This document shows positions 35,543-61,311 of a DNA stretch of 64,000 nt, piece by piece (position 1 is the stretch's first letter; each line of letters begins with the position of its first letter). The notes under the pieces were generated by a model, which ran no database searches, was not told the origin of the DNA, and saw only the letters and a program-made list of their open reading frames with translations. The translations under genes and the position numbers were made by a program. Origin of the DNA: Thermodesulfobacteriota bacterium (GTDB lineage Bacteria; Desulfobacterota; RBG-13-43-22); assembly GCA_040755035.1 (NCBI GenBank), contig JBFMBU010000313.1, positions 3,763 to 67,762 of the forward strand. The letters run 5' to 3'.

Positions 35543-35565
35543 TAAAATAGGGCTCATCTCCAAAG

Positions 35566-35632
35566 GATGGTTTCGCAAAAAGTCCCATTTTGTCATTTCG
35601 AGGAGAGAATCGACGAAAAATCTTTAAGGTTT
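35566..35632. repeat. Dispersed intergenic repeat family B, copy 1 (GGTYTCGCAAAAAGNCC...ATTTTGTCATTTCGAGGAGAGAANCGACGANAAATCTTT)
   Basis: Nearly identical to 59930-60001. The 5' part recurs at 61176. Confidence 0.75.
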
Positions 35633-35652
35633 CCTGATCCGAAATCCGCATT

Positions 35653-35922
35653 TTAATGGTAGTATCCTTGGCGCAGGAAACCCAATTTTTTAATATAAAA
35701 AATCTTGGCCAATTCCCGAAGCAGATGATTGGTTGACTCCTCAATTTTTTCCAGATCCTGATCGGTAATGGCCTCAGGCTGGAAATGGGTGATCAGTTCC
35801 TTCAGGTTTTGAAGCTGGTGGGCGATTTCCAGGTTGACGGCCTTTCCCCCCATGAATTCATGGACTTCCAGTATGGTTTGGAGACAATTTTGAAGGCGAA
35901 GTTGCCGTTGCTGAGGCTTCAT
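35653..35922 (-). CDS. Small helical protein of unknown function, last gene of the pilT/pilU operon
   Basis: ORF with start chosen at MKPQQ, which avoids overlap with the upstream gene. The track ORF extends to 36018. Confidence 0.4.
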   Translation of the reverse strand: MKPQQRQLRLQNCLQTILEVHEFMGGKAVNLEIAHQLQNLKELITHFQPEAITDQDLEKIEESTNHLLRELAKIFYIKKLGFLRQGYYH

Positions 35923-35960
35923 GGCGATTTTCCGGTTTGGCTTACCAAATAAACAGTGTT

Positions 35961-36428
35961 CTAATATCCGATAATATCTTTTCGGGATTGGAAATAGGCC
36001 TGGTAGAGGTGCTTCCATTCCATCCAGGAGTTTGTAATCCGTTTGGCGATATCGGGCAGGTTTTGCGGCGGAAGGACCAGATTGACGCCCAGGGCAAAAG
36101 CGGCCAGACGATCTCCGACCTTAACCCCTTGTCCCACCCAGGCCACAAAGATTTCCCTTCGTTGATTGGTCGGCATGGTTTGTATATATTCCAGAACCGG
36201 GTTGGATCCCGAATCCTCGCTGCCGAACCCTTCAAACAATATGAGAAAATCCGGCTCCCCAAATTCCATGCTGGAAAAAAGCTCCTCCGGGGTATTGCAT
36301 TGCAGGGGAAATCCCTTTTTGGTACGAATAATTTCCGCCAGGGAGTCCGCTCCCGGTGGGGGAGCGGCGATAAGCACCGTTCGTTCAGCCAGGGGATTGT
36401 CTTCTAATCCGATCCAAAGTCGGTTCAT
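35961..36428 (-). CDS. Receiver-like (CheY-fold) protein lacking the canonical phospho-acceptor Asp
   Basis: A beta-alpha pattern (VLIAAPP...DFLILFEGFG...IFVAWVG...) resembles REC domains, but Glu/Phe replaces the conserved Asp. Confidence 0.4.
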   Translation of the reverse strand: MNRLWIGLEDNPLAERTVLIAAPPPGADSLAEIIRTKKGFPLQCNTPEELFSSMEFGEPDFLILFEGFGSEDSGSNPVLEYIQTMPTNQRREIFVAWVGQGVKVGDRLAAFALGVNLVLPPQNLPDIAKRITNSWMEWKHLYQAYFQSRKDIIGY

Positions 36429-36452
36429 ATCATCCTTCTTTTTTTCCTGAAG

Positions 36453-37613
36453 TTATCTCGTATATTCATGGTCCAGGGTCAAATTTTCAATATCCGTTGT
36501 TTTTTCACCCCTGCGGCTTTTAATGTGGTCCAGACCCCGCTGCACTATTGCGCGTTTGGAGGCGTAGAGTTGGGCGGTCTCTTCGCTGATGAGGCCCTGA
36601 CGGTAAACGGAGATAATGTCCTGGTCGAAAGTTTGGCATCCCAAGGGACGGCTGCTCTCCATGATTTCATAAAAAGTTTTTTCTTCCGTTTCGCCGTGTA
36701 ATATCAGGTCCTGGACCCGGAGATTGTTGACCATAATCTCAAAAACCGCTACTCGCCCCTGGTCGATTCGGGGTAAAAGTCTTTGACTGACTACCCAGCG
36801 TAAGGCCCCCGAAAGACGGATCCTGACCTGTTGTTCTTCTTCCTGATCAAAAAAACCCAGAATGCGGTTCAGGGTTTGTGTGGCGTCAGTGGTATGCAAG
36901 GTACTCAAGACCAGATGACCGGTTTCCGAGGCGGTCAAAGCGATCTCCATGGTCTCCCGGTCCCTGATTTCGCCGACGAGTATGACCTTGGGTGCTTGCC
37001 TTAAGGCGGCCCGCAATCCATGGGCGAACGTGTCAAAATCAATCCCCAGTTCCCTTTGGTTAAACGTCGCCCTTTTGTGGGGGTGAACGATTTCCACCGG
37101 ATCCTCCAAGGTAATGACGTGGACCGGATCCATTTCATTAATCTCGTCCAGGATGGCCGCCAGAGAAGTGGTTTTCCCGGACCCGGTGGCGCCGGTGAAA
37201 AATATGATCCCGTTTTTCTCCCGGGACATTTTCTTAAACACCTGGGGTAGATGCAGTTCATCAATGGTCGGAATTTCAACCGGCAGTTTTCTCATGACGA
37301 TACTGTATTGGTTCTTTTGAGAAAAAACACTGACCCGGAAACGCACTTTGTCCTGGATGGCATGGGAAAGGTCGCAAGACCCTTCCCGGAGCAGGGTTTC
37401 CATTTTTCGCCGGTCGGAACGGATCAGATTAAAGGCCATAACCTCGGTTTGAAAGGGTGTCAGCACTTTGGTGGGAAAATTCATCTGCACCGGGACGAGT
37501 TGCCCGTAAATCTCTACCTGAAAAGGACGACCGACGGTCAGATTGATGTCCGAAATTTGGGGGAAATTTTCAACGATTTTGGATAGGATGAAATCCAGTT
37601 CGGCTCGTCGCAT
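36453..37613 (-). CDS. pilU: PilT/PilU-family type IV pilus retraction ATPase (PilU-like paralog)
   Basis: Walker A GATGSGKTT, Asp box, His box (LSTLHTTDA) and ~386 aa. Confidence 0.75.
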   Translation of the reverse strand: MRRAELDFILSKIVENFPQISDINLTVGRPFQVEIYGQLVPVQMNFPTKVLTPFQTEVMAFNLIRSDRRKMETLLREGSCDLSHAIQDKVRFRVSVFSQKNQYSIVMRKLPVEIPTIDELHLPQVFKKMSREKNGIIFFTGATGSGKTTSLAAILDEINEMDPVHVITLEDPVEIVHPHKRATFNQRELGIDFDTFAHGLRAALRQAPKVILVGEIRDRETMEIALTASETGHLVLSTLHTTDATQTLNRILGFFDQEEEQQVRIRLSGALRWVVSQRLLPRIDQGRVAVFEIMVNNLRVQDLILHGETEEKTFYEIMESSRPLGCQTFDQDIISVYRQGLISEETAQLYASKRAIVQRGLDHIKSRRGEKTTDIENLTLDHEYTR

Positions 37614-37730
37614 AGATCAATCCATCTAAGTTAGTGTTAAAAGAACAGGGTGGATACCAAATTCGATTATAGTAGCTTTTAGAAAAAGGACCTGCATCAG
37701 AACCTCCTCCGGATCCGCTACACCTGCTTG

Positions 37731-38813
37731 CTATATCTCAGTGAAATCGGTGACCAGATCTCCGGCGAAGGGTTTGAATTTTTCTTTATCAATACATTTA
37801 TTGTAAGCCTCTGCCCCGGAAATCCATCCTTTTTTTACAAAGTCCATAATGGCGTCGTCCAGGGATTGCATTCCGTACTTTCTCCCGGTTTGAATGACCG
37901 AGGGGATCTGATAGGTTTTGCCTTCCCTGACTAAGTTGCGCACGGCGTGGGTGCCGATCAGGATTTCCAGGGCGGCGATCCGTCCTTTTCGGTCTATTCT
38001 TTTAAAAAGGGTTTGGGAGATCACCGCCCGTAAAGCATCGGCCAACGTGGACCGGATTTGGGACTGCTGATCGGCAGGGAAGACCTCGATGATACGGTCC
38101 ATGGTTTTGGAGGCACTGATCGTGTGCAGAGTGGCAAAGACCAGGTGGCCGGTTTCGGCAGCTTCAATGGCCAGGGAAACCGTTTCCAGATCCCTCATTT
38201 CTCCCACCAGAATAATGTCCGGGTCCTCACGCAAGGCCCCCCTCAAAGCCGAGGCAAACGACCGGGTATGCCGGCCGACTTCACGGTGGTTAATCGTGCA
38301 ATTGATGTTATGATGTACGAATTCTATCGGGTCTTCGACAGTCAGGATATGGTCTTTGCGCTCCCGATTGGCCTGATCGATAATCGCCGCCAGGGTGGTG
38401 GATTTACCGCTGCCGGTAGGACCGGTCACCAGGACCAGGCCTTTTGGCAACAAGGCCAGGCGCTTAATAACCATGGGGAGTCCCAACTCCTCCACCGTGG
38501 AGATCTTGCTCGGGATTTCTCTGAAGACCGCCCCGACTCCATGGAGCTGGCGGAAAAAATTGGCCCGGTATCTGGCTAAACCTGGAATCTCATAGGCGAA
38601 ATCCAAATCACCGGTTTCCTCAAAATGCTTGATCTTTTCCTCGGGGGTGACTTCATATAACAAGGCCTTGAGCTGATCATTTTCCAGAACGTCAAACTTC
38701 ACCCTTTCCAGCTCACCACGGATGCGGAGGATCGGTTGAGCCCCTGAGGAGAGATGGAGGTCAGAGGCCCCATGGTCGTGCATTAATTTAAAAAAAGCGT
38801 CGATCTGTGCCAT
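37731..38813 (-). CDS. pilT: Twitching motility ATPase PilT
   Basis: GPTGSGKSTT, and the AIRNLVREGK motif is present as AVRNLVREGK. The N-terminus MAQIDAFFKLMHDHGASDLHL is canonical PilT. Confidence 0.9.
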   Translation of the reverse strand: MAQIDAFFKLMHDHGASDLHLSSGAQPILRIRGELERVKFDVLENDQLKALLYEVTPEEKIKHFEETGDLDFAYEIPGLARYRANFFRQLHGVGAVFREIPSKISTVEELGLPMVIKRLALLPKGLVLVTGPTGSGKSTTLAAIIDQANRERKDHILTVEDPIEFVHHNINCTINHREVGRHTRSFASALRGALREDPDIILVGEMRDLETVSLAIEAAETGHLVFATLHTISASKTMDRIIEVFPADQQSQIRSTLADALRAVISQTLFKRIDRKGRIAALEILIGTHAVRNLVREGKTYQIPSVIQTGRKYGMQSLDDAIMDFVKKGWISGAEAYNKCIDKEKFKPFAGDLVTDFTEI

Positions 38814-38838
38814 ATCGCTCCCGTTTATAGCATTAAGG

Positions 38839-39177
38839 TTATCGTATCAAACTGTTTATTATCCAGCTTATCAGGCTTATCAGCAGTGCCCCGACAAAAG
38901 CCGGCCAGAACCCTTGGATTACGAATCCTTTTATCAAGGAGGACACCAGCCAGAGCATAAACCCATTAATAACCAAGGTGAACAGCCCTAAAGTAAGGAT
39001 AGTGACGGGAAGGGTCAGGATGATCAAAAAAGGGCGGATCAGGGCGTTTAAGATGCCGAGCAAGGCGGCGGCCAGAAATAAAGGGGCTGCTCCTCTGACC
39101 TCAATGCCCCGGACCAGATAGGAGGCGGTAAAAATGGCCAAGGCATTAATTACCCATCTGAGCAATATCTTGGACAT
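38839..39177 (-). CDS. Phage holin family 4 (YvlD/DUF360-like) small membrane protein
   Basis: Four TM helices and LIRPFLIILTLPVTILTLGLFTLVINGFMLWL, typical of that family. Confidence 0.65.
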   Translation of the reverse strand: MSKILLRWVINALAIFTASYLVRGIEVRGAAPLFLAAALLGILNALIRPFLIILTLPVTILTLGLFTLVINGFMLWLVSSLIKGFVIQGFWPAFVGALLISLISWIINSLIR

Positions 39178-39374
39178 GTTTTCTTATTTAGCACACTTGC
39201 CTGGAAGTGTAAATTTTATTTTTATTGACGGGATCGGTCCAAGTTGGTAAGAAATTATGGACTACGGTTTTCATCGGAAAAAGGCCTTTCCGGATGAGAA
39301 CGCCATTTAGTTATTGTTGGGTTCTACACCGCTTGGATCCGTAAAAAGGACTGGGACGGGGAAAGAAAGCACGA

Positions 39375-39408
39375 AAAACCCCTGGACGCCCATCCCGGGG
39401 TTTTTTTT
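39375..39408 (+). terminator. Strong intrinsic-terminator-like hairpin (CCCCTGG-N8-CCCGGGG plus T8) immediately upstream of the panB RBS
   Basis: GC stem, T8 tract downstream and A5 upstream. Confidence 0.55.
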
Positions 39409-39452
39409 GCCGAGGAGACCTCTTGACCCAGGAAAGAGAAAAGGACGATACC

Positions 39453-40319
39453 ATGGAAAGAAAAAAAGTTACCATCGTAGACCTGCTGACCAAAAAAAAG
39501 GAAAGAAATAAAATAACCATGTTAACCGCCTATGACTTCGCCCTGGCTTCCTTTATCGACCAATCGGGAATTGATATGATCCTGGTGGGCGATTCCTTGG
39601 GGATGGTGGTCCTGGGATACGATTCCACGGTTCCGGTGACCATGGAGGAGATGATCCATCATTGCCGTGCTGTCCGCCGGGGGGTGCGCTATGCCTTTTT
39701 GGTGGGGGATATGCCCTTCATGTCCTACAATGTCAACAGGGAAGAGGCCATCAGAAACGCCGGAAGATTGATTAAAGAGGCCGGTTGTGATGCCGTCAAA
39801 CTGGAAGGGGGGATGGAGGTGGCCGAAACCGTTCGCTCTATCACCCTGGCCGGTATTCCTGTGATGGCCCACATCGGATTGACCCCACAGACAGCCGGAC
39901 AATTGGGGGGATTCAAGGTTCAGGGAAAGGAGGTCGAATCGGCAAAAAAGTTGTTGGATTCCGCACTGGCTTTGGAAGCTGCCGGGGCTTTTTCTATAGT
40001 TATGGAATGCATTCCGGACAAGCTGGCCGGTCTGATTTCACGTGCTTTAAAAATTCCCACCATTGGAATAGGGGCCGGTCCGGACTGCGACGGCCAGGTG
40101 CTTGTCAGCAATGATCTGTTAGGTTTGTTTGAGAGGTTTACTCCTAAATTTGTAAAACAATACATAAAGTTATTTACTATAATTAAGGAAACGGTTAAAG
40201 AATACAAAAAGGAAGTGGAATCCGGAAATTTTCCCGGTCCGGAACACAGTTTTCTCATGGATCCCAAGGTCTTCGAGCAAATGGGCCTAATGAAAAAGGG
40301 CAGAAAGAGGAAAGGATAA
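39453..40319 (+). CDS. panB: 3-methyl-2-oxobutanoate hydroxymethyltransferase
   Basis: ITMLTAYD, MILVGDSLGMVVLG and HIGLTPQ motifs. An alternative TTG start at 39423 with a GAGGAG RBS is possible. Confidence 0.85.
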   Translation: MERKKVTIVDLLTKKKERNKITMLTAYDFALASFIDQSGIDMILVGDSLGMVVLGYDSTVPVTMEEMIHHCRAVRRGVRYAFLVGDMPFMSYNVNREEAIRNAGRLIKEAGCDAVKLEGGMEVAETVRSITLAGIPVMAHIGLTPQTAGQLGGFKVQGKEVESAKKLLDSALALEAAGAFSIVMECIPDKLAGLISRALKIPTIGIGAGPDCDGQVLVSNDLLGLFERFTPKFVKQYIKLFTIIKETVKEYKKEVESGNFPGPEHSFLMDPKVFEQMGLMKKGRKRKG

Positions 40320-40323
40320 AGCC

Positions 40324-41274
40324 ATGAAAATCGGAGTTGTCGGGCCGGGGGCCATGGGCTGCCTCCTGGCCGGAAAATTGGCCCTGGCCGGCAATGAGGT
40401 CGTCCTCCTGGACCACTATCCGGAACGGGTCCGAGTTTTAAATCGGTTAGGGGTGAGGATAGAGTCCGATAATCAGGTTGTAAAAGTAAAAATTCCCGTC
40501 ACCCTTGATGCTGAAGTTTTATCGTCGTCCGAGGTGATCCTGATCTGCGTCAAGGCTTACGATACTCTAACGGTAGCCCGGACCCTCCAAGGCCTTGCTA
40601 AAGGGCCCTATTTTTTAACCCTCCAAAACGGGGTGGGAAATATAGAGACCCTGGGAAAATATCTTCCCAAAAAAAAGATCCTGGGCGGTATTACCTCCCA
40701 TGGGGCCACAGATTTGGGTTCTGGAAGGGTACGCCATGCCGGCCGGGGAGAAACCTTTATCGGTTTCGGGTTCGATAAGGGGAAAAGAGAACCAAGAGTG
40801 GACCAGATCAGGGACCAAATTCTGGAAAGATTATCCCAGGCCGGGTTCTCGACCCGGTGGGTGCCGGACATTGAGAATCTCATTTGGAGTAAGCTATTGA
40901 TAAACATTGGAATTAACGCCTTGACCGCCCTGACTCGGCTCCCTAACGGTAAGCTGGTCGAATTTAACGGGGTCAAAGAGATCTTGGAAGAAGCCGTCAG
41001 AGAAGGGATGGAAATCGGTCTGAAAAAAGGCATACAATTTATCCAAGCCGACCCTGTGGCCCAGGTGAAGAAAGTCTGCCGGCTGACGGCCACGAACGTC
41101 TCTTCCATGCTCCAAGACATCCTCAAAAAAAGCAGGACAGAGATTGATTTTATTAACGGCGTTATCGTGCGGGAAGGACGTCGTTATGGAACGCCGGTGC
41201 CGGTCAACAGCCTGCTGACACGTCTGGTAAAAACCATTGAACAATCCTATGCTCAGACGGTAGCTGCCTGTTGA
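40324..41274 (+). CDS. panE: 2-dehydropantoate 2-reductase (ketopantoate reductase)
   Basis: MKIGVVGPGAMG Rossmann N-terminus and the ApbA C-terminal domain. Confidence 0.8.
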   Translation: MKIGVVGPGAMGCLLAGKLALAGNEVVLLDHYPERVRVLNRLGVRIESDNQVVKVKIPVTLDAEVLSSSEVILICVKAYDTLTVARTLQGLAKGPYFLTLQNGVGNIETLGKYLPKKKILGGITSHGATDLGSGRVRHAGRGETFIGFGFDKGKREPRVDQIRDQILERLSQAGFSTRWVPDIENLIWSKLLINIGINALTALTRLPNGKLVEFNGVKEILEEAVREGMEIGLKKGIQFIQADPVAQVKKVCRLTATNVSSMLQDILKKSRTEIDFINGVIVREGRRYGTPVPVNSLLTRLVKTIEQSYAQTVAAC

Positions 41275-41706
41275 CGGAGGGAAAACGGATTGGGGATAAA
41301 GGAAGATGGCGACCATCCTCCCTCATTCCCCCAATCCCGCTTTTTCCTGGATTATGATTGCGGTGCCGGTGAAGCGGCAACGGCTGTCTTGGCGGCTATT
41401 TTTTTCCTTTTTTGACGGCGATGCCGTCTCCGTTCGATTTCTCTAACCCTTTCAATCTTTTTGTGCTTTGCCAATGGATCACCCCCCTAAAAAATATTTT
41501 TCTTGCCGGAGAACGGGATAGGTCCCGGTTTTACCTTCCATCTATTATGGTAAGATATTTTGATCCTGTCAAGAAGGTTATCCCCTCTGATTTTTCTTCA
41601 AGATACCCGCGGTTTTGAAAAGGAGAAGGTTTGAAAAGAGGCCTTTTCTTGCGTCCTCCGATGTTAGTTTAAAGAAATAGATTCTGTAGTGATTTTCCCT
41701 CAATAT

Positions 41707-41742
41707 TGTGCACTTTCACATTTTTTTGTGCAAAAAAATGAA
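41707..41742. promoter_or_regulatory. Palindromic operator-like motifs: TGTGCACTTTCACA followed by T7-GTGC-A7
   Basis: Inverted repeats in the AT-rich island, ~90 bp upstream of the sigma-54 promoter. Confidence 0.4.
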
Positions 41743-41806
41743 GGGGACTAAAGCAATAAAAAACATAACCAATTGAAATTTAATATAATATTTTTTAAGC
41801 GTTAAT

Positions 41807-41826
41807 TGGCATTTTTTTTGCAAAAA
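41807..41826 (+). promoter_or_regulatory. Sigma-54 (RpoN) promoter candidate TGGCAT-N5-TTGCA, overlapped by the perfect palindrome TTTTTTGCAAAAAA
   Basis: GG and GC are separated by exactly 10 nt. It matches TGGCAC-N5-TTGCW at 11 of 12 positions. A small ORF with a strong RBS lies ~60 nt downstream. Confidence 0.55.
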
Positions 41827-41889
41827 ATTATTTTTATTACATGAGGATCCCAAAATAAGGGAGGGTTTTGGGGGAAAAGGAGATGGATA

Positions 41890-42132
41890 ATGAGGTTGCA
41901 GACCGAGTCATTAGTTGACCAGTTTTATTACTCGAACCAGGATAAAATGATTTCCTGTCCCTTTCAACCCGGAAACCTAAAAATTTCTAAAAAGGCCTGT
42001 CTGAAACGGTACAAAGCGGCCCAGCGTAGAAAGATGGAAGTCTTCCGGGTGGAAGATCTTTTTAACTATTTCATATCGCAGGGATTGTCTCGCTGCCAAA
42101 AATGTCCGATCATTGAAACTTCAGGGGCTTGA
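41890..42132 (+). CDS. Small hypothetical protein (80 aa, 4 Cys: C23, C37, C70, C73) downstream of the sigma-54 promoter
   Basis: AGGAG RBS 7 nt upstream of the ATG. No recognizable family. Confidence 0.3.
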   Translation: MRLQTESLVDQFYYSNQDKMISCPFQPGNLKISKKACLKRYKAAQRRKMEVFRVEDLFNYFISQGLSRCQKCPIIETSGA

Positions 42133-42324
42133 AGGGATTTTATTGTTCTAATTCGGTCCCTGTTGTCAGAGCAGTGGAGGTTCCGTTGCGGTTTTTTCAA
42201 AAATCGGGAGATGCCGATTTTGGAAGGCTGCCTGCCTATAGAATTCTATTCGTAAGTTACTGAGGGAAAACCCTGTCGGCGTCCTTCCTCCCGGTGAAAA
42301 CGGATAATCAATAAAGAAGGATAA

Positions 42325-42582
42325 ATGCTTCCAATTTTAATTTTATATATTGATAAAGAGTATAGCATCACCTATTGGATCATCGGGGGAGAAATGAAAA
42401 TCGTCTCCCCCTTAACCCTCTCCCAGGCCATTCAACTTTTAAAGAACGTCCAATTCGATCTGATTGTTTCCGACCCGTTACATATCGCCATCCTAAGGAC
42501 GGAGGATCCCGGAAGCAGGAAAAGTGAGAATTCCCCTATTTGGTTGGCGGCAGAATCCTTATCCCAACCTCCTTTACCTTGA
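42325..42582 (+). CDS. Hypothetical 85-aa ORF. It may be a fragment resembling a receiver-domain segment (DLIVSDP).
   Basis: ORF only, in an AT-rich region. Confidence 0.15.
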   Translation: MLPILILYIDKEYSITYWIIGGEMKIVSPLTLSQAIQLLKNVQFDLIVSDPLHIAILRTEDPGSRKSENSPIWLAAESLSQPPLP

Positions 42583-42614
42583 AGAAATCCATCCGGAGCA
42601 AAGACCAAGATGAT

Positions 42615-42669
42615 CAGTACAGAATCAGTACAGAATCAGTACAAAATCAGTACAAAATCAGGACAGAAT
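42615..42669. repeat. 11-bp tandem array, 5 units (CAGTACAGAAT x2, CAGTACAAAAT x2, CAGGACAGAAT), directly 3' of the aconitase-family gene
   Basis: Direct reading. Confidence 0.85.
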
Positions 42670-44618: not shown

Positions 44619-44631
44619 TCCTCATTACGTA

Positions 44632-48679: not shown

Positions 48680-48916
48680 TTTTTGTTGGGGAAAATTGTC
48701 ATGGGAAAAAGAAGTACTCCCGGCATCCTGTAAAATAGAGATATATTAAAAGGTTAATCTTGACAAAGCCCTTCCGGGATGATAACCTATAATTATCATT
48801 AGGTTTATTTTTCTTGCCCCCTGGCCCTGAGGGGAGGGAATTTTTTCGTCTGACCTTGTGGGGGAAGGGTCTTTTGAAGAAACGCGCCTGCCTGGGGCAA
48901 TAGGAACTTAAAAGCA

Positions 48917-49024
48917 GAATTCTACGCAAATTGGATAGTATTTATTTAGAAACAAGATCTAAACCCGGACCGCATGAGGTGTTTGCGAACATCCCCCTCC
49001 GGTTCCGGCTGGTCCGGGTTGGAA
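48917..49024. repeat. Dispersed intergenic repeat family A, copy 3 (best-preserved copy)
   Basis: gaattctacgcaaattggatag...aaacccggaccgcatgagg...ggttccggctggtccgggttgg. Confidence 0.8.
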
Positions 49025-49049
49025 ACCCATAAGGTAAAAAAGGTCAGAG

Positions 49050-51766: not shown

Positions 51767-51784
51767 ATCGGAGGCGGGTGAAAA

Positions 51785-52303: not shown

Positions 52304-52435
52304 GCGGATGGAATCCCGCGAGCGATGGGATTAATGTGGGAGGTTATATTGAAGCACAAGAAATCTCCCTGAATTGACTTGACCCTTTTTTATAAAACCT
52401 TGACCGCAGCACAAATTAAAAAAAGGTCCACGAAC

Positions 52436-52852
52436 ATGGCGGCAAACCTAAAGGATGCACAGAGCCTTTTTAAAAAAAAATCCGGGTTTACCCTGCTGGA
52501 GGTGCTGGTGGCTTTGGTTCTCTTGGGGATGGCCGTTACGGCGATGTTACAGCTTTTTTCGGCCAACCTGAACGCCATATCCAAATCAGAGGGTTATGTG
52601 GCCTGTTCCCTGGAGGCGCAATCCAAAATGCGGGAGGTCCTCGAGGAAAAAGAACTTTCCGAGAGTTCCTGGAGCGGCATTACGGCCAACGGCTATCGCT
52701 ATCAGGTTACCGTTGCTGAACTCTTAAAAGAAAGGACGGACAGCCTTCCGCTGAAACTGTTGGAGGTGGAAGTCAGGCTCTATTGGAACCTGGGGGTCCG
52801 GGAAAAGACCTTATCTCTGAACACCATGAAAATGGTGGAAAAAAAGATATGA
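52436..52852 (+). CDS. gspI: Pseudopilin (GspI-like by size and position)
   Basis: KKKSG|FTLLEVLVALVLLGMAV. The start is chosen at MAANL; the track ORF begins at 52379. Confidence 0.6.
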   Translation: MAANLKDAQSLFKKKSGFTLLEVLVALVLLGMAVTAMLQLFSANLNAISKSEGYVACSLEAQSKMREVLEEKELSESSWSGITANGYRYQVTVAELLKERTDSLPLKLLEVEVRLYWNLGVREKTLSLNTMKMVEKKI

Positions 52853-53598
52853 AAAACCAGATGATAGGCATAGCTTTTATAGGCGATGCCTGTAAAACCC
52901 CTCTAAAAATAGAAGAGGGTTATCTCTTATCGCCGAACGCCGAACGCCGAAGGCCGAACGTTTTTTTAGGGAAGGCCCCCGGTTTCACCCTGCTGGAATT
53001 GCTGATTTCCATAACCATTGTCGGGGTGCTGCTGTTTATCCTCATGTCTGTTTTGCGGCTGGGTTATCGGTCGGTGGAGGCCGGAGAAAAAAAGATTGAA
53101 TCCCTGGAACGCTTCCGGGCCTCTTTTAACCTGATTGAGGCCCAGATCCAGTCCGAGATCCCCTTGTCCTTTTTGGAAAACGGAGAGAGAAAATACTATT
53201 TTAAAGGGCAATCCGGGTTACTGGAGTTTTCTACCAACCATTCCCTTTGGGAAGGGGAGAGCGGTTTTGTGCTGGTCTCCTACCGGGTGGAGGAGGAGGG
53301 GCAGGGGAAATGGTCCTTGTGGGCCGCGGAAGGCAAAATAGGGCAATCACCCTTGAGGGAGGTAAAGCTTCTGGGGGCTTTTGACAAGATCTCCTTTTCC
53401 TATTTCTATCAGGACCCGACCGAAGAAAGCGGGCAATGGCTGGAGGAATGGACGGAGACGGCTTTTCGGCCGAAAAAGATCAAACTGGATTTGGTTGTTG
53501 ACGGTAAAGAGCTCTCCATCCTATCGCCCTTAAAAAGCCAGGGGGGCCTGACCGGACTCCAGACCAGGCCGATTTCCAGAAGCTCAAGCGGGGGATGA
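52849..53598 (+). CDS. gspJ: Pseudopilin (GspJ-like) with an unusually long ~45-aa leader that contains a heptamer repeat array
   Basis: ...GKAPG|FTLLELLISITIVGVLL. The only in-frame ATGs (52849, 52861) lie upstream of the CGCCGAA array. The ATGA start overlaps gspI. Confidence 0.6.
   Translation: MKNQMIGIAFIGDACKTPLKIEEGYLLSPNAERRRPNVFLGKAPGFTLLELLISITIVGVLLFILMSVLRLGYRSVEAGEKKIESLERFRASFNLIEAQIQSEIPLSFLENGERKYYFKGQSGLLEFSTNHSLWEGESGFVLVSYRVEEEGQGKWSLWAAEGKIGQSPLREVKLLGAFDKISFSYFYQDPTEESGQWLEEWTETAFRPKKIKLDLVVDGKELSILSPLKSQGGLTGLQTRPISRSSSGG
52931..52958 (+). repeat. Heptanucleotide tandem array CGCCGAA x3 plus GGCCGAA, followed by a T7 homopolymer, inside the pseudopilin leader coding region
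   Basis: Direct reading. It is the same heptamer family, in reverse complement, as 15745-15779. Confidence 0.85.
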
Positions 53599-54698: not shown

Positions 54699-56181
54699 TC
54701 AGGGGACCTCTGGGAAACCTAAAGGAAAGGCCCTGGGCCGGCTGTTTTTATTGAGTCTGGCCGACGACAGGATTTGGTATAAAAAAACCCTTTGCCTGGC
54801 CATAGAAAAGGGAGGGGTCTCGGTATCCTTGGGCAGGCGTTTCTTTTCCAAGATAAGAATCAGCGGACTCAAATATTATCCCTGCCCCGGCAGTGAATAC
54901 CCTCCGCCGGAATTTGTGACTTCCTGTTTAGGATTGGCGACCACCGAGCTTCAGGCCGGTGGAGTTCCGGTGGTCCTGAGTCTTCCCAAATCCTGGGCGG
55001 TTATCCGAACCGCGGACTACCCGTCGACCGTATTGGAAAATCTCTCCAATGTCCTGGGGTTTGAATTGGATCGGATAACTCCTTTTAATCCGGAAACCGC
55101 TTATTTTGATTTCCATACAATCAAGGAAGATGCCTCCCGCATAACGGTTTTGGTGGCGGCCGTCAGAATGGACGTGGCTGATCCCTATCTTAAAGTCCTG
55201 CGGGAAAAAGGGATAACGGTCGAGCAGGTAACCATCAACCTTTTGGGGTTTGGGACCCTGAGCCGGTTCCTGCAAAAACAAGATCCGGTCATTTTTCTGA
55301 ATATTGAAGAAAACCAATATGAGGGCCTTCTGTACTTGCCCGAATCCCTATTGAAAGTTTTTTCAGGCCCTTTCCCCAACGAAGACCGGAACGGGGCCTT
55401 GAGCCGGATTGAAAAGGATTTGGAATCCATACTGGCTGAAGCGGGGGGAGTTGGCAAAATAAAAGAAGTCTATTGTCGGATAAAGGAAGGAGATCCCTTT
55501 CTCAAGGAACGGATACCTACCCGTATGCGCTGGCCGGTTCATTTTTTGGGGGGATCGGATCCGGCCTTCAATCAAATCCTCGGTCTTAAACCCGGGGAAG
55601 GCCCCATCCCCTGCAGCGCCCTGGGGGGACTGCTGGAGGCTTTATGGACCAAGGCCCTGGGCCTCAATCTTTTACGGAAAGGCCGACGTAAAAAAATAAG
55701 GCCCCCGCTGGTCCTGACCCTTCTGCTGCTTATCCTTTTCGGGATTATGATCGGGGTTTATTGGCTGGCCCCAATGGAAGCGGAGAAGAAGCGATTGCAG
55801 GACATTGAAAAACAAATCGCCGCCCAAAAAGGGGAAATAAAAAAAATTGAAACCTTAAAAAAAGAGGTGGATTCCGTTTTTGAAGAAATCGAAAAGATAC
55901 ATTCCTTCAAGACCACGAACCCCTTGAGCTTGAATCTCCTGAAGGAACTTACCCTGATCCTGCCCAAAAATTCCTGGTTGACACGGGTGAGGATTTCGGA
56001 ATCGCAGGTCAATATCGAGGGCTATTCCCCCTCAGCCACACCGTTGATTCCCAGACTGGATGCCTCAAGATATTTCAGAAAGGTGGAGTTCTCCGCCCCG
56101 ACTTTTCGGGACCCAAGGCAGAATATGGACCGTTTTCAGATCAAAATGGAAATTGAAGGCCGTGAGGATGAAAAAAAATAG
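54661..56181 (+). CDS. gspL: GspL-like assembly protein: PilM-type actin-like cytoplasmic domain fused to a TM helix plus a PilN-like periplasmic domain
   Basis: The N-terminal 330 aa are PilM/GspL-cyto-like. A TM segment LVLTLLLLILFGIMIGVYWL is followed by a coiled coil and a PilN-like domain. Confidence 0.65.
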   Translation: MEAPGNNQPTEVNQGTSGKPKGKALGRLFLLSLADDRIWYKKTLCLAIEKGGVSVSLGRRFFSKIRISGLKYYPCPGSEYPPPEFVTSCLGLATTELQAGGVPVVLSLPKSWAVIRTADYPSTVLENLSNVLGFELDRITPFNPETAYFDFHTIKEDASRITVLVAAVRMDVADPYLKVLREKGITVEQVTINLLGFGTLSRFLQKQDPVIFLNIEENQYEGLLYLPESLLKVFSGPFPNEDRNGALSRIEKDLESILAEAGGVGKIKEVYCRIKEGDPFLKERIPTRMRWPVHFLGGSDPAFNQILGLKPGEGPIPCSALGGLLEALWTKALGLNLLRKGRRKKIRPPLVLTLLLLILFGIMIGVYWLAPMEAEKKRLQDIEKQIAAQKGEIKKIETLKKEVDSVFEEIEKIHSFKTTNPLSLNLLKELTLILPKNSWLTRVRISESQVNIEGYSPSATPLIPRLDASRYFRKVEFSAPTFRDPRQNMDRFQIKMEIEGREDEKK

Positions 56182-56812
56182 AGTATTATACATAGCGATT
56201 CCCATTTTGTTTATCCTGGCCGGCTTGGTATTTTATGAATACGGCTATCTCCGGATAAAAACGGAAGAAGCCGTTATTCGAGAGGAACAAGAAAGCAAGG
56301 CCAAGACCCTGGAAAAATATCTTTCCGTTATTGCCGAAAGACCGGATCTGGAAAAAAGGTTGGCGGCACTCAAAGAGCAAAGAAAGTCGGAAAACGCCAA
56401 AATGGTTGAAGGAGAAACCTTTTCCCTGGCCGCGGCCGCACTGCAGGACATGGTCAAGAGCATCATCGTCAGTCGCAACGGTGTCATCTCCAGCGAGCGT
56501 ATGGGCAAGGAAGAGGAATTCACTCCCGGGCCGCCCGATCCGCCCCGCGATGGTCTTCCCAAACAGAAAGGCGAAAGGACTTCCTTGCCGGGAAAAGAGA
56601 AGAAAGAAGAAAAAAAACGTTTTAGAATCGTCCAGGTCAGCTTCGATTTTACAGCACCGGACATCGGTGTGTTGAGGGACATCGTTTTTTTTATCGAAAC
56701 CAAAACCCCCTACCTGGTGATCAAAGAACTGGATGCCCGGGTCAGAAATTTCCGGGACCCCCGGGAACTTATGGTCAGACTGGATGTCACCGCCCTGTAT
56801 GGAGGACGGTAA
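56168..56812 (+). CDS. gspM: GspM/PilO-like inner-membrane assembly protein
   Basis: Single N-terminal TM segment (LYIAIPILFILAGLVFY), a coiled coil and a C-terminal alpha/beta domain. Start at MKKNRV. Confidence 0.6.
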   Translation: MKKNRVLYIAIPILFILAGLVFYEYGYLRIKTEEAVIREEQESKAKTLEKYLSVIAERPDLEKRLAALKEQRKSENAKMVEGETFSLAAAALQDMVKSIIVSRNGVISSERMGKEEEFTPGPPDPPRDGLPKQKGERTSLPGKEKKEEKKRFRIVQVSFDFTAPDIGVLRDIVFFIETKTPYLVIKELDARVRNFRDPRELMVRLDVTALYGGR

Positions 56813-56813
56813 T

Positions 56814-57515
56814 ATGATTTTAAGGAAAATATTCTCCCAGGTTACTATCCTGAACGGCCTGTTGATAGCGGGGATCGCTGTTTTCTTTTTTGGTTTTCTT
56901 TCCCCGCGCTTGAATACGGATGTAACCTACGCCCCGACGATCATCAAAAAAAAACCTATGGGCAGAAGCGCGTCCGAGACTTCCACCGCGCAAGCCCCTT
57001 TGTCTCCCCAGGATTACCGGACCGTTGCCGATGAAAATTTGTTTCATCCCGACCGTATCGTTCCCCCGGAAAAAAAGGCGGAAGCAGCGCTCCCCAAACC
57101 GGAATTTGTCCTCTATGGGACTTTACTTGCGCCGGATTTGAGCCTGGCCTATATGGAGGATAAGAAAGCTCCGGTGACCACTCCCGGTAGGGGACAGAGG
57201 CAGACCGCTTTAAAGATCGGAGAAACCCTGAGCGGTTTCCGGTTGAAGGAAGTAGCCAAAGACCGGGTGGTGATGGTTCGGGGGGAAGAATCCCTTCAGG
57301 TCCTGCTTCAGGACCCTGGAACCTCTAAACCCAGGGAAGCGGGAACAGGGGCCGCTGTCAGAGGCTCGGTCTCATCTCCCGGGAGGACACCAACCTCATC
57401 TCCACCCCTGCCGAACAGGACACCACCTCCGCTTCCTCCTGGGCAACGGGTGCCGGTTCCGGAGAGAATCCCTCCTCCCGCTCTTCCTCCCCCTCCGATG
57501 CCGCCGGGGAGATGA
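56814..57515 (+). CDS. gspC: GspC/PilP-like protein with Pro-rich C-terminus
   Basis: N-terminal TM segment, a central domain, and a C-terminal PPPLPPG...PPPALPPPPMPP region. Confidence 0.5.
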   Translation: MILRKIFSQVTILNGLLIAGIAVFFFGFLSPRLNTDVTYAPTIIKKKPMGRSASETSTAQAPLSPQDYRTVADENLFHPDRIVPPEKKAEAALPKPEFVLYGTLLAPDLSLAYMEDKKAPVTTPGRGQRQTALKIGETLSGFRLKEVAKDRVVMVRGEESLQVLLQDPGTSKPREAGTGAAVRGSVSSPGRTPTSSPPLPNRTPPPLPPGQRVPVPERIPPPALPPPPMPPGR

Positions 57516-57644
57516 GATAGAGAAAACCTCGGATTTTCGATTTGGGTTGCCGCTGGTTCGGGTCGGGAAGATTAGAGAAAAGGTCGTTTGCTGCCGAAGT
57601 GAAAACCGGAAAATTACTTTGGAAGCGTTCAGTTTTTTTGCAAT

Positions 57645-59663
57645 TTATTGGGGCTTGTTCAAGAGCAGGTCCATTTTCTTCATATCCTTGGTCACGCCAT
57701 CCAACCGATGGATATAAATCGAGGTCAGGTTCTCGGCCTCCTGTTGATTGCGGATCACCTTGGGGGTGAGGAGAAGAACGATTTCGGACCTTGATTTTTC
57801 CCTGGTGGTTGATCCGAACAGGTACCCTAACAAAGGAATTTTGCTCAGCCAGGGGATCCCTCCCCGGGTAGTATCCGTTTTATCTCTGATCAGTCCTCCA
57901 ATAACAATGGTCTGACCGTCCTGGACCACCAGATTGGTTTTAGCCTCCCGCTTAAAGATGATCGGGTATTCCTGATCGTCATAAAGCTTCCGTAAACGGT
58001 AATCGGAAACCTCCTGGGACACTTCCAGATTAACCAGTCCGCCGTCATTAATTAAAGGGGTTATTTCCAACATGGTGCCGGTGTCTTTATATTGGATGGT
58101 CCTTTGGATTTGGGTCGTGCCGGTAATATTGGTTTCGGAGGTGACGATGGGGATCTGGTCGCCGATCTGTATCTTGGCCTTGCGGTTGTCCATGGCCAGG
58201 ATATGGGGGGAGGCCAGGACGGACAGCTTGGATTCCGTGGCCAGGGTGCGTAGAAAACCCCGGATAAGGCCGGTCTTGTCGATACCCAAAAAGGTAAAGC
58301 CGGTGGTGGCGGCCGTTTCGGAAGGGGAAAAACCGAAATTGAAAAAATTGGAATCCACCTTACTTTTGACCGACCACTCCAGACCGAATTGCAGGTCATC
58401 CCCCAAAGTAATCTCGGCGATGAGGACTTCGATCATCACCTGGCGGGGGACGATATCGATCTTTCTGATGGTTTCCAGGATCAGGGCATAGTCATCCGGC
58501 GTGGCCAGAATGATCAGGGAATTGGTCACTTCATCCGGAAAGATTTTGGTGATATCGGAAACCAAGGCCTCTCCGGCGGCAGATGGGCCCAAAGTGATGC
58601 GGGATTGAACCGCCGGGGTCGTTTGCCCGCCGGCGGGAGAGGTCGGTCGGGCGGGAGTAGTAACGGTGGCCTGGGCCGGGGGGGCGGTCCGGGGGGGTGC
58701 TGCAGTTCCTAAATAAATCTGTTGCAGCAGAGCGGAGAGGTCCTTGGCCTTGCTGTTTTGGACCGGGTAGACATAGACCTGGGGTTTGATCTGCTTGAGC
58801 TGTTCGCTGTCGAATATTTCGATGAGATGGAGGAGTCGTTTCACATTGGCGTCCGTATCGACGATAATGAGATAATTGATCTTGGGCACATCGACGATAA
58901 CGGCATTGGCCGATAAAAAAGGGGTCAAAACCCGGACCATCTCCGTTGAGGAAAAATATTTGATGGGTACCACCTGCAGCAGGCCCAATCCGGACAGGGT
59001 CACCTTTTCAGGCGTTCGGCCGATGCTGACCGGTGCCGGTTCTTTGGACATGTCGGCGATGGGGATGATCCGGTACAGGCCTCCCTCTTCCACCACTCCG
59101 ATGCCATTTAAACGGAGGATGACCTCCATGAGCGGCAGGACGTCCTCCCTGCCGACCGGGGTCACCGAGCGGAAATTGACCCTTCCTTTGACCTTTGGAT
59201 CGATAATGTAATTATAGCGCAGAACCCCGCCGAATATGGTTTGAATCACGGAATAGACATCGGCATCATCGAAATTTAAGCTGATATCCCCTCTTTTAGG
59301 GGCCGGCTTTTGCTGATTGAAGGCCCCTTGACCATTTTGAACAGGGGCAGGAAGCGAAGTCCCATTCGGGGGCCCGGGTTGGGGAGGAGGGACCTTGTCG
59401 CTTCTCCCATCAACGGGTGGGGGCGGAAGGGACGGAGGCAAGGGGACAGGCGTCGGAGGAGTAGAAGAGGGCGCGCTCTGGGTTTTGGGCGGCGGCAACG
59501 GAGGGGGCATTACCTGTTGTGTTTGGGCCTGGGCAAACTCCTTGGGAAGCGGGGGTTGGGACCAGGTTGGGTGACCGAGGGCCAGCACCACAAGGCAGAG
59601 ACCAAGAAAAGCGATAAAACTACACCGGACTGCCCGCATTCCCAAAAGAATTTTCCTCCTCAA
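57645..59663 (-). CDS. gspD: Secretin GspD/PilQ family
   Basis: N0/N1 domains, a C-terminal secretin domain (VVQDGQTIVIGGLIRD...IPWLSKIPLLGYLF) and a Pro-rich N-terminal linker. Confidence 0.85.
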   Translation of the reverse strand: MRRKILLGMRAVRCSFIAFLGLCLVVLALGHPTWSQPPLPKEFAQAQTQQVMPPPLPPPKTQSAPSSTPPTPVPLPPSLPPPPVDGRSDKVPPPQPGPPNGTSLPAPVQNGQGAFNQQKPAPKRGDISLNFDDADVYSVIQTIFGGVLRYNYIIDPKVKGRVNFRSVTPVGREDVLPLMEVILRLNGIGVVEEGGLYRIIPIADMSKEPAPVSIGRTPEKVTLSGLGLLQVVPIKYFSSTEMVRVLTPFLSANAVIVDVPKINYLIIVDTDANVKRLLHLIEIFDSEQLKQIKPQVYVYPVQNSKAKDLSALLQQIYLGTAAPPRTAPPAQATVTTPARPTSPAGGQTTPAVQSRITLGPSAAGEALVSDITKIFPDEVTNSLIILATPDDYALILETIRKIDIVPRQVMIEVLIAEITLGDDLQFGLEWSVKSKVDSNFFNFGFSPSETAATTGFTFLGIDKTGLIRGFLRTLATESKLSVLASPHILAMDNRKAKIQIGDQIPIVTSETNITGTTQIQRTIQYKDTGTMLEITPLINDGGLVNLEVSQEVSDYRLRKLYDDQEYPIIFKREAKTNLVVQDGQTIVIGGLIRDKTDTTRGGIPWLSKIPLLGYLFGSTTREKSRSEIVLLLTPKVIRNQQEAENLTSIYIHRLDGVTKDMKKMDLLLNKPQ

Positions 59664-59785
59664 CGGCTAAAAATACCTTTTCTAAGCATAAAATCTTACA
59701 CTAAAAAAACCTTTTTAACAAATAAAAACTTCATCTTCTACGTTTTTTTTTAAGGGATTAGTAACAAAAGAATAAAATTAGAATA

Positions 59786-59912
59786 AAATTCTCTGCAAAA
59801 TAGAAGGAACTTATTAAAAAGAACAGACCTTGGACCCGGACCCATTGAGTTATTTTCAATATGTTTCTTGTCACCGGATCTTGATCGCGGCTGGGCCGGA
59901 TTGGGTTGTGGG
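59786..59912. repeat. Dispersed intergenic repeat family A, copy 4 (diverged)
   Basis: aaattctctgcaaaatagaagg...ggacccggacccattgag...cggctgggccggattgggttgtgg. Confidence 0.6.
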
Positions 59913-59929
59913 TTTTCGTTTTAGTAACT

Positions 59930-60001
59930 TGCAAATAGGATGGTCTCGCAAAAAGACCAATTTTGTCATTTCGAGGAGAGAAGCGACGAGAAATCTTTGA
60001 A
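59930..60001. repeat. Dispersed intergenic repeat family B, copy 2 (begins with hairpin GGTCTCGCAAAAAGACC)
   Basis: ~90% identical to 35566-35632. Confidence 0.8.
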
Positions 60002-60004
60002 GTA

Positions 60005-60052
60005 TTTTCGGAATTCCGTCTTGGTTCCGGCTGGTCCGGGCTGGGTTACGGA
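60005..60052. repeat. Repeat family A, partial copy (3' half: TTTTCGGAATTCCG...GGTTCCGGCTGGTCCGGGCTGG)
   Basis: Matches the 3' halves of the copies at 24040-24090 and 48990-49024. Confidence 0.7.
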
Positions 60053-60185
60053 TTTTTTTTCGGAGAAGAAAGTTAATCAAGGGAAAATTTTTTAAAGGTC
60101 CCGGTTTATGGGGTTATGGCCGTGCAGGGCCAGGAAGATTGTTTTTTGTTTTTAGATATCTTATGGTTATGAGATAGTCCTTTTC

Positions 60186-60220
60186 ATTTGAAAAAAAAAG
60201 GGTTCGGTGGTATAAAATAA
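60186..60220 (+). promoter_or_regulatory. Sigma-70-type promoter candidate for gspG (TTGAAA, 17 nt spacer, TATAAA)
   Basis: -35/-10 hexamers with 17-nt spacing, ~20 nt upstream of the RBS. Confidence 0.45.
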
Positions 60221-60238
60221 TAAAAAAGGAAATATCTA

Positions 60239-60673
60239 ATGCTGCCATTAAAAAGCCTTCCTTCTTCTTCTAAACAACGGGGGTTTTCCCTGATCGAACT
60301 CATGGTGGTCATGGTCATTATCGGTCTTCTGGCCGCCCTGGTTGGGCCCAGAATATTTCCCAAACTGGGTAAGGGAAAGCAGGCCACGGCCAAGGCCCAG
60401 ATCGAATTGTTGAATCAAGCCCTGGATCAGTACCGCTTGGACACCGGGGCCTATCCTTCCAGCCAGGAAGGGCTCAACGCCTTGACGACTAATCCCGGAA
60501 ATGAAAAATGGGACGGCCCATATTTAAAGAAAAAGGTCCCTGATGATCCCTGGGGGCACCCCTATGTTTACCAGATTCCCGGCAGCAACGGAGAATATGA
60601 TCTGCTCTCCTACGGCCGCGACAACAAACCGGGGGGAGAAGGGGAAGATAAGGATATCACCAATTGGGAGTGA
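60239..60673 (+). CDS. gspG: Type II secretion major pseudopilin GspG
   Basis: G|FSLIELMVVMVIIGLLAALV, AKAQI, DGPYL, DPWGHPYVY and SYGRD are all hallmark GspG motifs. Confidence 0.9.
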   Translation: MLPLKSLPSSSKQRGFSLIELMVVMVIIGLLAALVGPRIFPKLGKGKQATAKAQIELLNQALDQYRLDTGAYPSSQEGLNALTTNPGNEKWDGPYLKKKVPDDPWGHPYVYQIPGSNGEYDLLSYGRDNKPGGEGEDKDITNWE

Positions 60674-60678
60674 AGGTC

Positions 60679-61116
60679 ATGCTGCCTAAGAAAATTGCCT
60701 TTACGGCCGGGTTGCTTTGGTTGACGTTTTCATTTTTTCTTCTTTCGGGCTGCGAAGTCTCGGAGGTCAACAAGCAGGACAGCCTCTCCAGCGGAACCAC
60801 CTCCGGTTACGGGAGCAGCGGGGGTCCGGCGGCGAATATCACCCTTTATGCGGCCAACAACAATCTGGTTTCCGGGGCGACTACGACCCTGACCGTTGTC
60901 GTTACCGACGGTTCAGGGAGGCGGACCGACGCCTCGATCATCCTCACCTCTACTCGGGGGGGGACTTTTAACGGGACCGATACTACTTTGATCGGTACCA
61001 CGTCCGGAGGGGCTTTCATCGCCGATTATAAAGCAAATTACGCCGGCGATGACGAAGTGACCGCTACGGTAGCCGGTACGGCCCTCAAGGCAACGATTGT
61101 CATCTCTGTCTCTTGA
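60679..61116 (+). CDS. Lipoprotein with Ig-like (BIG-type) Thr/Gly-rich domain
   Basis: Lipobox LLSGC after a signal helix. The beta-rich TTLTVVVTDGSG...VTATVAG region resembles bacterial Ig-like domains. Confidence 0.6.
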   Translation: MLPKKIAFTAGLLWLTFSFFLLSGCEVSEVNKQDSLSSGTTSGYGSSGGPAANITLYAANNNLVSGATTTLTVVVTDGSGRRTDASIILTSTRGGTFNGTDTTLIGTTSGGAFIADYKANYAGDDEVTATVAGTALKATIVISVS

Positions 61117-61175
61117 GTTTCTTGCCTTTCGCAGGGGCTTAGATTCTTACTCGAAAAGTCTGAGGATTTATCTCT

Positions 61176-61311
61176 GATGGTCTCGCAAAAAGTCGTCGAA
61201 GGCCCATTATAGTCATTCCGGTGAAAACCGGAATCCAGTAATTTCAGCAAGATATAGACCTCTGGACCCCGGCTTTCGCCGGGGAGAAGACTTTTTGCAA
61301 GTCCATCTATT
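61176..61311. repeat. Repeat family B-related element bounded by imperfect 19-bp terminal inverted repeats (GATGGTCTCGCAAAAAGTC ... GACTTTTTGCAAGTCCATC), containing hairpin CCCCGGCTTTCGCCGGGG
   Basis: Direct reading. It has a MITE-like architecture and lies in the convergent intergenic region. Confidence 0.6.

Follow-up and report, generated by a model that had tools for sequence, protein, structure and literature searches.

What are the short repeats scattered between the genes of a 64,000-nt stretch of a Thermodesulfobacteriota genome (assembly GCA_040755035.1, contig JBFMBU010000313.1, positions 3,763 to 67,762; hereafter the window), and are they mobile elements or structures of the host? 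A sequence-only reading of this DNA had taken three of them for a dispersed family, here called family B, with one copy resembling a miniature inverted-repeat transposable element (MITE), and had kept conserved terminators as a fallback. We count four copies (B1 to B4; Table 1), and consider it very likely that they belong to a family of non-autonomous DNA transposons, i.e. MITEs, that is abundant in Thermodesulfobacteriota. B3 would be a full element containing hairpins of the type associated with the nuclease Ssn, and B1, B2 and B4 would be half-elements. The dispersed, MITE-like family is supported by its copies, by flanking duplications and by one empty site, while the copies in the window are themselves without duplications. 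The family appears to be undescribed so far, the MITE being already a well known kind of element.

The repeats in the window are real. A repeat finder pairs B1 with B2 over 67 nt at 90% identity (35564-35630 and 59937-60003), which moves the second copy by about 7 nt from the interval first given for it (59930-60001). The 19-mer GATGGTCTCGCAAAAAGTC, allowing up to three mismatches, is found at 35566(+), 59939(+), 61176(+) and 61289(-). Only 0.01 matches are expected, and four were reached in none of 100 shuffles. The last two of these sites are the ends of B3, which lie in inverted orientation and are complementary at 17 of 19 positions, bearing out the near-perfect inverse end that had been seen in this longer relative. 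The GC hairpin noted inside it is also present, except that B3 encloses two G+C hairpins and not one, and the element folds much better than its shuffles (z = -6.3 as RNA, and -5.7 and -7.0 as DNA). The fourth copy, B4, was found by a pattern search with the inner arm and then with a profile built from relatives (nhmmer E = 0.005); its end matches at 15 of 19 positions and is joined to the same arm, GTCATTTCGA...GAGAAATCTTGAA. A hairpin formed by the first 17 nt had been proposed as a general feature. This is possible in B2 only (GGTCTCGCAAAAAGACC), through a single base change that gives rise to GGTC...GACC; neither B1 nor the family consensus (GGTCTCGTAAAAAGTC) is able to fold in this way.

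How widespread is the family? An exact-pattern scan with GATGGNCTCGYAAAAAGTC over one genome per species matched at least 120 contigs, so that further copies clearly exist beyond the window. Among the matches listed, about 109 contigs are named Desulfo-, Syntropho-, Deltaproteobacteria or Thermodesulfobacteriota and the remainder are a few Nitrospirota, NC10 and unclassified; these matches include the isolate Desulfogranum marinum DSM 2058 and single metagenome-assembled genomes (MAGs) with seven to nine loci each (JAUVGT01, CAZJXF01). One copy lies in a Desulfosudis oleivorans MAG (L110; L-numbers label loci on the contigs of relatives, from genomes and metagenomes). Many matches fall within about 200 nt of a contig end, which fits the behavior expected of a repeat that breaks assemblies. 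A collection of plasmids gave no match to the family, and a single match among viral contigs, within a coding region, was taken as chance. There was no match in Rfam 15 at gathering scores, nor at E <= 1 around B1, B2 and B3. The terminal repeat string was not found in the literature searched, reviews and a large MITE survey do not mention the terminal-repeat family, and the D. autotrophicum genome paper mentions many repeats and no such element.

These relatives define the element. Of the 137 exact left ends, 101 are followed within 450 bp by a right end (GACTTTTTACGAGNCCATC, up to four mismatches), giving 91-92 unique elements with both inverted ends, whose lengths peak at about 100, 132-133, 150-154, 189 and 313 bp. 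The ends are constant, with a terminal repeat of 19-21 bp that reads (T)GATGGnCTCGyAAAAAGTC ... GACTTTTTrCGAGnCCATC(A), the left-end consensus being GATGGnCTCGyAAAAAGTC, whereas the interior is modular and varies among subfamilies of about 100, 133, 151, 189 and 313 bp. Over its full length B3 can be aligned with 20 elements of the 133-bp subfamily from other genomes (nhmmer E = 1e-32 against the profile of the relatives), and it is 76-79% identical to copies in unrelated MAGs (L022, L083 and L121), with dissimilar flanks.

The 151-bp subfamily (L009, L013, L018, L024, L043, L115 and others) is the most homogeneous. It has two tandem left-end repeats, GATGGTCTCGTAAAAAGTC followed by GACGGTTTCGTAAAAAGTTC, and a conserved, strongly paired core (...GCAAATTTCGTAATCATGAAGCGTACTTATCGTACG...) lacking any Ssn-type hairpin; doubled end repeats of this kind recall transposons with several transposase-binding sites at each end. 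One locus, L048, was considered as a nested insertion for which L040 would be the empty site, and proved instead to be a chimera of two subfamilies.

The family carries the marks of insertion. Perfect direct repeats flank 59 of 90 testable elements (45 have repeats of 6 bp, 12 of 7 bp and 2 of 5 bp), and controls in which the left flank was shifted by 2 or 3 nt gave none. The 6-bp repeats have the consensus A-W-N-N-W-T; of the 45, 44 begin with A and 43 end with T, two bases that extend the palindrome of the ends and could for that reason have been part of the element. In the exceptions AAGTAA (L009), AATTAA (L079) and CTACTT (L015) the unusual base is present on both sides of the element, and since these bases are duplicated too, all six positions belong to the duplicated target. 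A search with joined flanks also yielded one empty site, a paralogous one in MAG36_tar_biofilm: L013 is filled by a 151-bp element between ATTTTT flanks, and L093, whose flanks are 85% identical, lacks exactly the element and one copy of ATTTTT. Both hallmarks hold for the family, whereas none of the window copies has a duplication. B3 is bordered by ATCTCT and TATTAA and preserves no duplication, and because its right end also has two mismatches it looks like a complete but old copy of the 133-bp subfamily. The databases contain no genome near enough to reveal an empty site at the window loci, the closest relative sharing about 50% protein identity; the nearest other homologues of the GGDEF protein flanking B3 are 46-52% identical.

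A staggered cut is the standard explanation for duplications of this kind. The insertion mechanism may then be one in which a transposase encoded elsewhere binds the terminal repeats and inserts the element by a cut staggered by 6-7 bp, into the A/T-rich and roughly palindromic target, A-W-N-N-W-T, that is duplicated over 6 bp and sometimes 7 bp. The ISDol1 group of ISNCY was first found in Desulfococcus (now Desulfosudis) oleivorans and makes direct repeats of 6-7 bp. It would fit our family by this duplication length and by host lineage (L110), and is best treated as a lead and not as evidence. In the literature ISDol1 is a subgroup of ISNCY.

If the copies did not move, they could be regulatory structures of the host, intrinsic terminators or hairpins that stabilize mRNA, fixed at the ends of genes. 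The location of B1, B3 and B4 between convergent gene ends would suit such a role, as would the very stable stem of B3 and a run of eight T nucleotides that begins 9 nt past B3 on the plus strand. All three copies first recognized had in fact been described as gene-terminal, which is correct for B1 and B3; B2 lies between the starts of gspD and gspG, where a terminator would be out of place. A terminator scan found nothing at B1 or B3, neither of which has a T-run right after its stems, and its call at B2 concerns a short stem specific to that copy, at a rate near that of shuffles. B1, B2 and B4 fold no better than their shuffles. The duplications and the empty site of the family speak against an immobile structure, and relatives with the 76-79% identity noted above sit amid unrelated flanking genes in many insertion contexts. 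We therefore reject conserved terminators, the fallback of the sequence-only reading, and hold host regulatory structures of either kind to be highly improbable.

The interior of B3 connects the family to a second system. The GIY-YIG nuclease Ssn cleaves single-stranded DNA at the Neisseria sequence NTS, CGTCATTCCCGCGMAVGCGGGAATCYRG, which contains the repeat dRS3, and the paper describing it defines a general Ssn-related motif (SRM), HGTCWYN(0-2)YYVSBRHN(0-5)WNVSBRGN(0-2)RNCYNB (Nat Commun 2025, PMC11893778). Both hairpins of B3 match this pattern, in inverted orientation to each other; the arms of B1, B2 and B4 do not. There are three SRM matches in the window where 0.48 are expected, and 57 in 120 loci of the family against about 5 expected; of these 57, 31 (54%) lie inside MITEs, which cover 1.75% of the bases. 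The 133-bp subfamily follows a fixed, asymmetric plan. The left end is followed by a spacer of about 17 nt, hairpin 1 (GTCATTCC-stem-loop-stem-GGAATCCAG), an A/T-rich loop of about 13-22 nt and hairpin 2 (CTGGA...TGAC), which abuts the right end. The upstream GTCAT is oriented and nearly invariant in this subfamily, whose consensus YGTCATTCCSGCGAAAGCSGGAATCCAG is almost identical to NTS. B3 does not have the exact dRS3 palindrome ATTCCC-N8-GGGAAT, reading ATTCCGG-N6-CCGGAAT in its place; the palindrome is found in some relatives such as L090 (ATTCCCGTGAAAACGGGAAT). Across the family 96% of the cells in the hairpin stems are paired (95-99% by stem), with compensatory changes at 11 pairs, and none of 500 shuffles scored as high.

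In some loci (L056:3509-3663, L084:138-291, L020:2330-2486, and L242:1420-1500 and 1792-1850) mini-hairpins of about 20-30 nt, such as CCCGATTTTCATCGGG... and GCCCCGGACACCGATCCGGGG, are inserted in the loops of Ssn-type hairpins, forming a third layer of nesting.

In related contigs hairpins of this type are associated with genes. Single-domain GIY-YIG genes (Pfam PF01541) stand directly between NTS-like hairpins in L094, L117, L242, L252, L253 and L256. The cleanest units are those of L252, L253 and L256, which comprise a hairpin, 10-17 nt, a GTG start, 96 codons, TGA and an inverted hairpin; no outer repeat and no duplication accompanies these compact units. A second GIY-YIG subfamily is flanked by an arm of the B1/B2 type in L201, L149 and L173. 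In the protein of L117, Tyr8, Tyr19 and Glu66 have the spacing of SsnA Y6, Y17 and E64, the residues mutated by the Ssn authors (PMC11893778). With this 96-aa protein (L117:5753-6040) as query, at least 7,994 clusters are found at E <= 1e-8, and each of the top 120 reaches 79% identity or more; a family this abundant and this well conserved is what one typically sees with a mobile or selfish gene. Many of its relatives (P0033-P0152) lie on very short contigs. A search of the PDB matched only a distant UPF0213 GIY-YIG protein, and NCBIfam yielded no specific family. Because both B3 hairpins match the SRM, and related contigs hold units of hairpin, GIY-YIG gene and hairpin, the interior of B3 is best read, from its sequence, as a gene-less Ssn unit nested in a MITE.

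Might the hairpins then be the working ends of the element? The copies could be units like REP (repetitive extragenic palindrome) and REPIN sequences, spread by an enzyme acting on single-stranded DNA, either the Ssn GIY-YIG protein or a Y1 protein of the IS200/IS605 type, with the outer repeats as passengers. The compact hairpin-ssn-hairpin units, lacking an outer repeat, do resemble tiny insertion sequences, and the GIY-YIG family to which their gene belongs has a great many members and is highly conserved. In many metagenomes the same arms stand bare, singly or as doublets, and they are also found within other outer frames. The analogy with REP and REPIN was raised by the Ssn authors themselves (PMC11893778). 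Yet the duplications lie outside the 19-bp repeats, and the classes of about 100 bp and 151 bp share both repeats and duplications while containing no Ssn-type hairpin. The compact ssn units show no duplication, and the activity shown for Ssn is the cutting of single-stranded DNA and not its joining (PMC11893778). We consider it unlikely that the hairpins drive the movement of the family.

In a MITE driven from its outer ends, the hairpins would be cargo. Since the duplications lie next to the outer ends and the hairpins keep fixed positions, the hairpin pair may have entered a MITE once, after which the composite would have spread as one piece. To judge from the motif, a host nuclease of the Ssn type could recognize the hairpins as substrates whenever the DNA becomes single-stranded. 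A bolder proposal is that the 133-bp elements are the non-autonomous form of a composite system, in which Ssn hairpin units, their only gene being that of the 96-aa GIY-YIG single-strand nuclease, are carried inside transposase-driven MITEs, and that this is a main route by which the hairpins multiply. We offer this as a speculation that is rather doubtful at present. In a stronger version the nuclease itself would help to move the hairpin units. Were the proposal correct, the system would seed genomes with sites that restrict or shape the recombination of single-stranded DNA.

The three shorter copies in the window have a simpler construction. B1, B2 and B4 consist of the left end, a short spacer and a single arm, GTCATTTCGA...GAGAAATCTT(T)GAA, beyond which neither a second arm nor a right end can be recognized. 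Another subfamily (L042 of 143 bp, L077 of 182 bp, L112 and L134) has a homologous long arm, which is paired there with a second arm on the far side of a loop. Given this homology and their single end, B1, B2 and B4 are most likely immobile half-elements of a palindromic element whose other arm has been lost. One-ended copies occur in other genomes too (L036, L033, L108 and L116), and partial copies that lack an end are known from other bacterial MITE families (PMC10969869). The exact 22-mer core of B1/B2 gave no match in the JGI metagenomes, nor any by BLAST in the 120 loci, and on that account this variant seems to be lineage-specific. The GTCATTTCGA...GAGAAATCTT arm itself is extremely common in metagenomes, mostly as inverted doublets, with the terminal repeat nearby in 5 of 156 occurrences.

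In the metagenome contigs L126, L141, L150 and L210 such doublets lie inside a different outer inverted repeat (TAGTGYCTGAACGAAAA...), so that hairpin doublets are cargo in more than one repeat frame.

A number of observations weigh against the assignment of the window copies to a MITE family with Ssn-type hairpins. None of the four has a flanking duplication and three have one end only, so that mobility is supported for the family and not for these particular copies. The 0.8 Mb of loci yielded no element with a transposase gene between these ends. Inverted pairs of ends 0.45-7 kb apart with matching flanks enclose ordinary genes, the open reading frames (ORFs) that recur across loci are kinases, ligases and the like, and those beside unpaired ends are housekeeping genes. 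There is no ssn gene within the 64-kb window. The covariation in the hairpin stems comes largely from two lineages (the CCGG and CCCG types), and the types of the two hairpins agree in 19 of 21 elements; for these reasons independent compensatory events are fewer than the cell counts suggest. Lastly, B1, B2 and B4 all stop at the same internal point, which independent truncation explains poorly. The common endpoint suggests that a single truncated copy was ancestral to all three, or that the unit spreads in another way.

The second of these possibilities would make B1, B2 and B4 a separate element of about 65 bp, spreading as such with weak ends of its own (GATGGTYTCG on the left and CGARAAATC on the right). 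It would account for the shared endpoint and for the presence of three copies in 64 kb. Pairing is possible between the left end and CGAGAAATC on the right, B1 and B2 differ there in a compensatory manner (TTTCG/CGAAA in B1 and TCTCG/CGAGA in B2), and the right boundary of B2 is sharp, coinciding with the exact start of a partial family-A repeat (60004-60048). Against this, no flanking duplication appears under any boundary tried, the conserved sequence runs about 8 nt past the proposed right end, and the exact core is absent from the JGI metagenomes and the 120 loci, as stated above. A single compensatory difference in two or three sequences is weak evidence for paired ends. We give such an element only a slight chance of being correct, and retain the half-element interpretation of B1, B2 and B4.

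The family shares many features with bacterial MITEs such as Chunjie of Geobacter uraniireducens, Correia of Neisseria and MITEAba12 of Acinetobacter. These are alike in their size of about 100-310 bp, lack of coding capacity, terminal inverted repeats, target duplications, intergenic location, many copies, size variants and partial copies, of which Chunjie has 57 (review PMC10969869); with Chunjie the comparison is by description and not by sequence. Our family differs in its 6-7 bp duplication at A-W-N-N-W-T, in its swapped interiors, and in having one subfamily with Ssn-type hairpins. With the NTS/dRS3/SRM-SsnA system (PMC11893778) it shares the SRM fit of both B3 hairpins and, in related contigs, the arrangement of hairpin, ssn gene and hairpin. 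In contrast to that system, no gene separates the hairpins of B3, which lie inside a terminal repeat of the transposon type, and the family makes target duplications. Neither MITEs nor Thermodesulfobacteriota are mentioned in the Ssn paper (PMC11893778). The REP/BIME and REPIN-RAYT systems are similar in their short extragenic palindromes, inverted doublets, decayed singlets, and hairpins thought to act in single-stranded DNA. However, REPINs have neither outer terminal repeats nor target duplications, both of which our family possesses, and where RAYT is an IS200/IS605-like Y1 protein, no Y1 gene was seen here and the associated gene is that of a GIY-YIG nuclease.

The copies in the window are probably inert, old relics. 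Two local effects are possible: B2 lies inside the gspD/gspG promoter region, and B3 places a strong hairpin between convergent genes. The value of the finding lies in the family and its link to Ssn, the notable feature being a gene-less Ssn unit as the cargo of a MITE. The family is among the commonest repeats in Thermodesulfobacteriota MAGs, and a named model of it would improve the annotation and assembly of environmentally important genomes. The 2025 work on Ssn left open how NTS/SRM hairpins multiply (PMC11893778). The link between MITEs and Ssn joins two fields, and the question becomes directly testable because 54% of the SRM matches lie inside MITEs and the MITE interior has the hairpin-ssn-hairpin form without the gene.

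Table 1. Copies of family B in the window, their parts and the genes on either side
Feature	Positions	Strand	Description
B1	35566-35630	+	One end only: left end (1 mismatch), 7-nt spacer, one arm GTCATTTCGAGGAGAGAATCGACGAAAAATCTTTAAGGT; no right end, no flanking duplication
B2	59939-60003	+	One end only; 90% identical to B1
B3	61176-61307		132 bp; probable complete MITE belonging to the 133-bp subfamily
B3 left terminal inverted repeat	61176-61194	+	GATGGTCTCGCAAAAAGTC
B3 right terminal inverted repeat	61289-61307	-	GACTTTTTGCAAGTCCATC on the plus strand; 2 mismatches with the left end
B3 hairpin 1	61211-61238	+	AGTCATTCCGGTGAAAACCGGAATCCAG; Ssn-related motif, NTS-like
B3 hairpin 2	61262-61292	-	AGTCTTCTCCCCGGCGAAAGCCGGGGTCCAG (minus strand); second Ssn-related motif, inverted with respect to hairpin 1, abuts right end
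B4	16930-16995	+	Degenerate, one end: GATGATCTCAAAAAAAGTT + 14-nt spacer + GTCATTTCGACTGGAAGGAGAAATCTTGAAATC
Neighbors of B1	34850-35542; 35653-36018	+; -	DUF374 gene and 121-aa ORF; convergent ends
Neighbors of B2	57645-59663; 60239-60673	-; +	gspD secretin gene and gspG; divergent starts, promoter region
Neighbors of B3			150-aa ORF and GGDEF gene; convergent ends
Neighbors of B4	14762-16879; 17068-17838	+; -	ABC ATPases and enoyl-CoA hydratase; convergent ends

The element copies themselves give rise to spurious ORFs at 35403-35744 (-) and 59871-60080 (-), one of which translates as ...FRRFSPRNDKMGLFAKPS..., and peptides from such ORFs are probably annotated as hypothetical proteins in many MAGs.

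A second set of repeats in the window, family A, has copies of about 120 bp at 2472-2590, 23972-24090, 48907-49026 and 59776-59915, besides the partial one that adjoins B2; they are 66-82% identical, with CCCGGACC...GGTTCCGG as an inverted repeat in their interior. The third copy stops 24 bp short of a 507-aa ORF having a P-loop stretch of the T2SS-E type in common with two other genes of the window. If secretion or pilus operons have been duplicated here, the family-A copies may represent their paralogous regulatory regions. B2 is flanked by a full A copy and by the partial copy, which corresponds to the 3' part of A. Family A was considered as an empty site for B2; the order of full A, B2 and partial A gives no clean insertion site, and the idea was rejected. 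About 80 bp separate the first family-A copy from a tRNA gene at 2669-2741 (-) (Rfam, 74.9 bits).

The window also contains blocks of short repeated units at 15739-15855, 16882-16914 and 52916-52964. Heptamers of the type CGAGATAC at 15827-15855 recur inverted at 16886-16914 (29 nt, 90% complementary), and TTCAGCG/TTCGGCG units at 15752-15779 have an inverted counterpart at 52931-52958. The first block sits between the two ABC-ATPase halves of ORF 14762-16879, which reads through it without a stop. A tandem 11-nt unit, ATCAGTACAGA, is repeated about five times at 42613-42667 with 91-100% identity, directly upstream of the start of a 649-aa minus-strand ORF. Finally, periodic repeats of 15 and 30 nt occupy 1421-1724 in an apparently coding stretch, the minus strand of which may specify a coiled-coil protein or a repeat protein.

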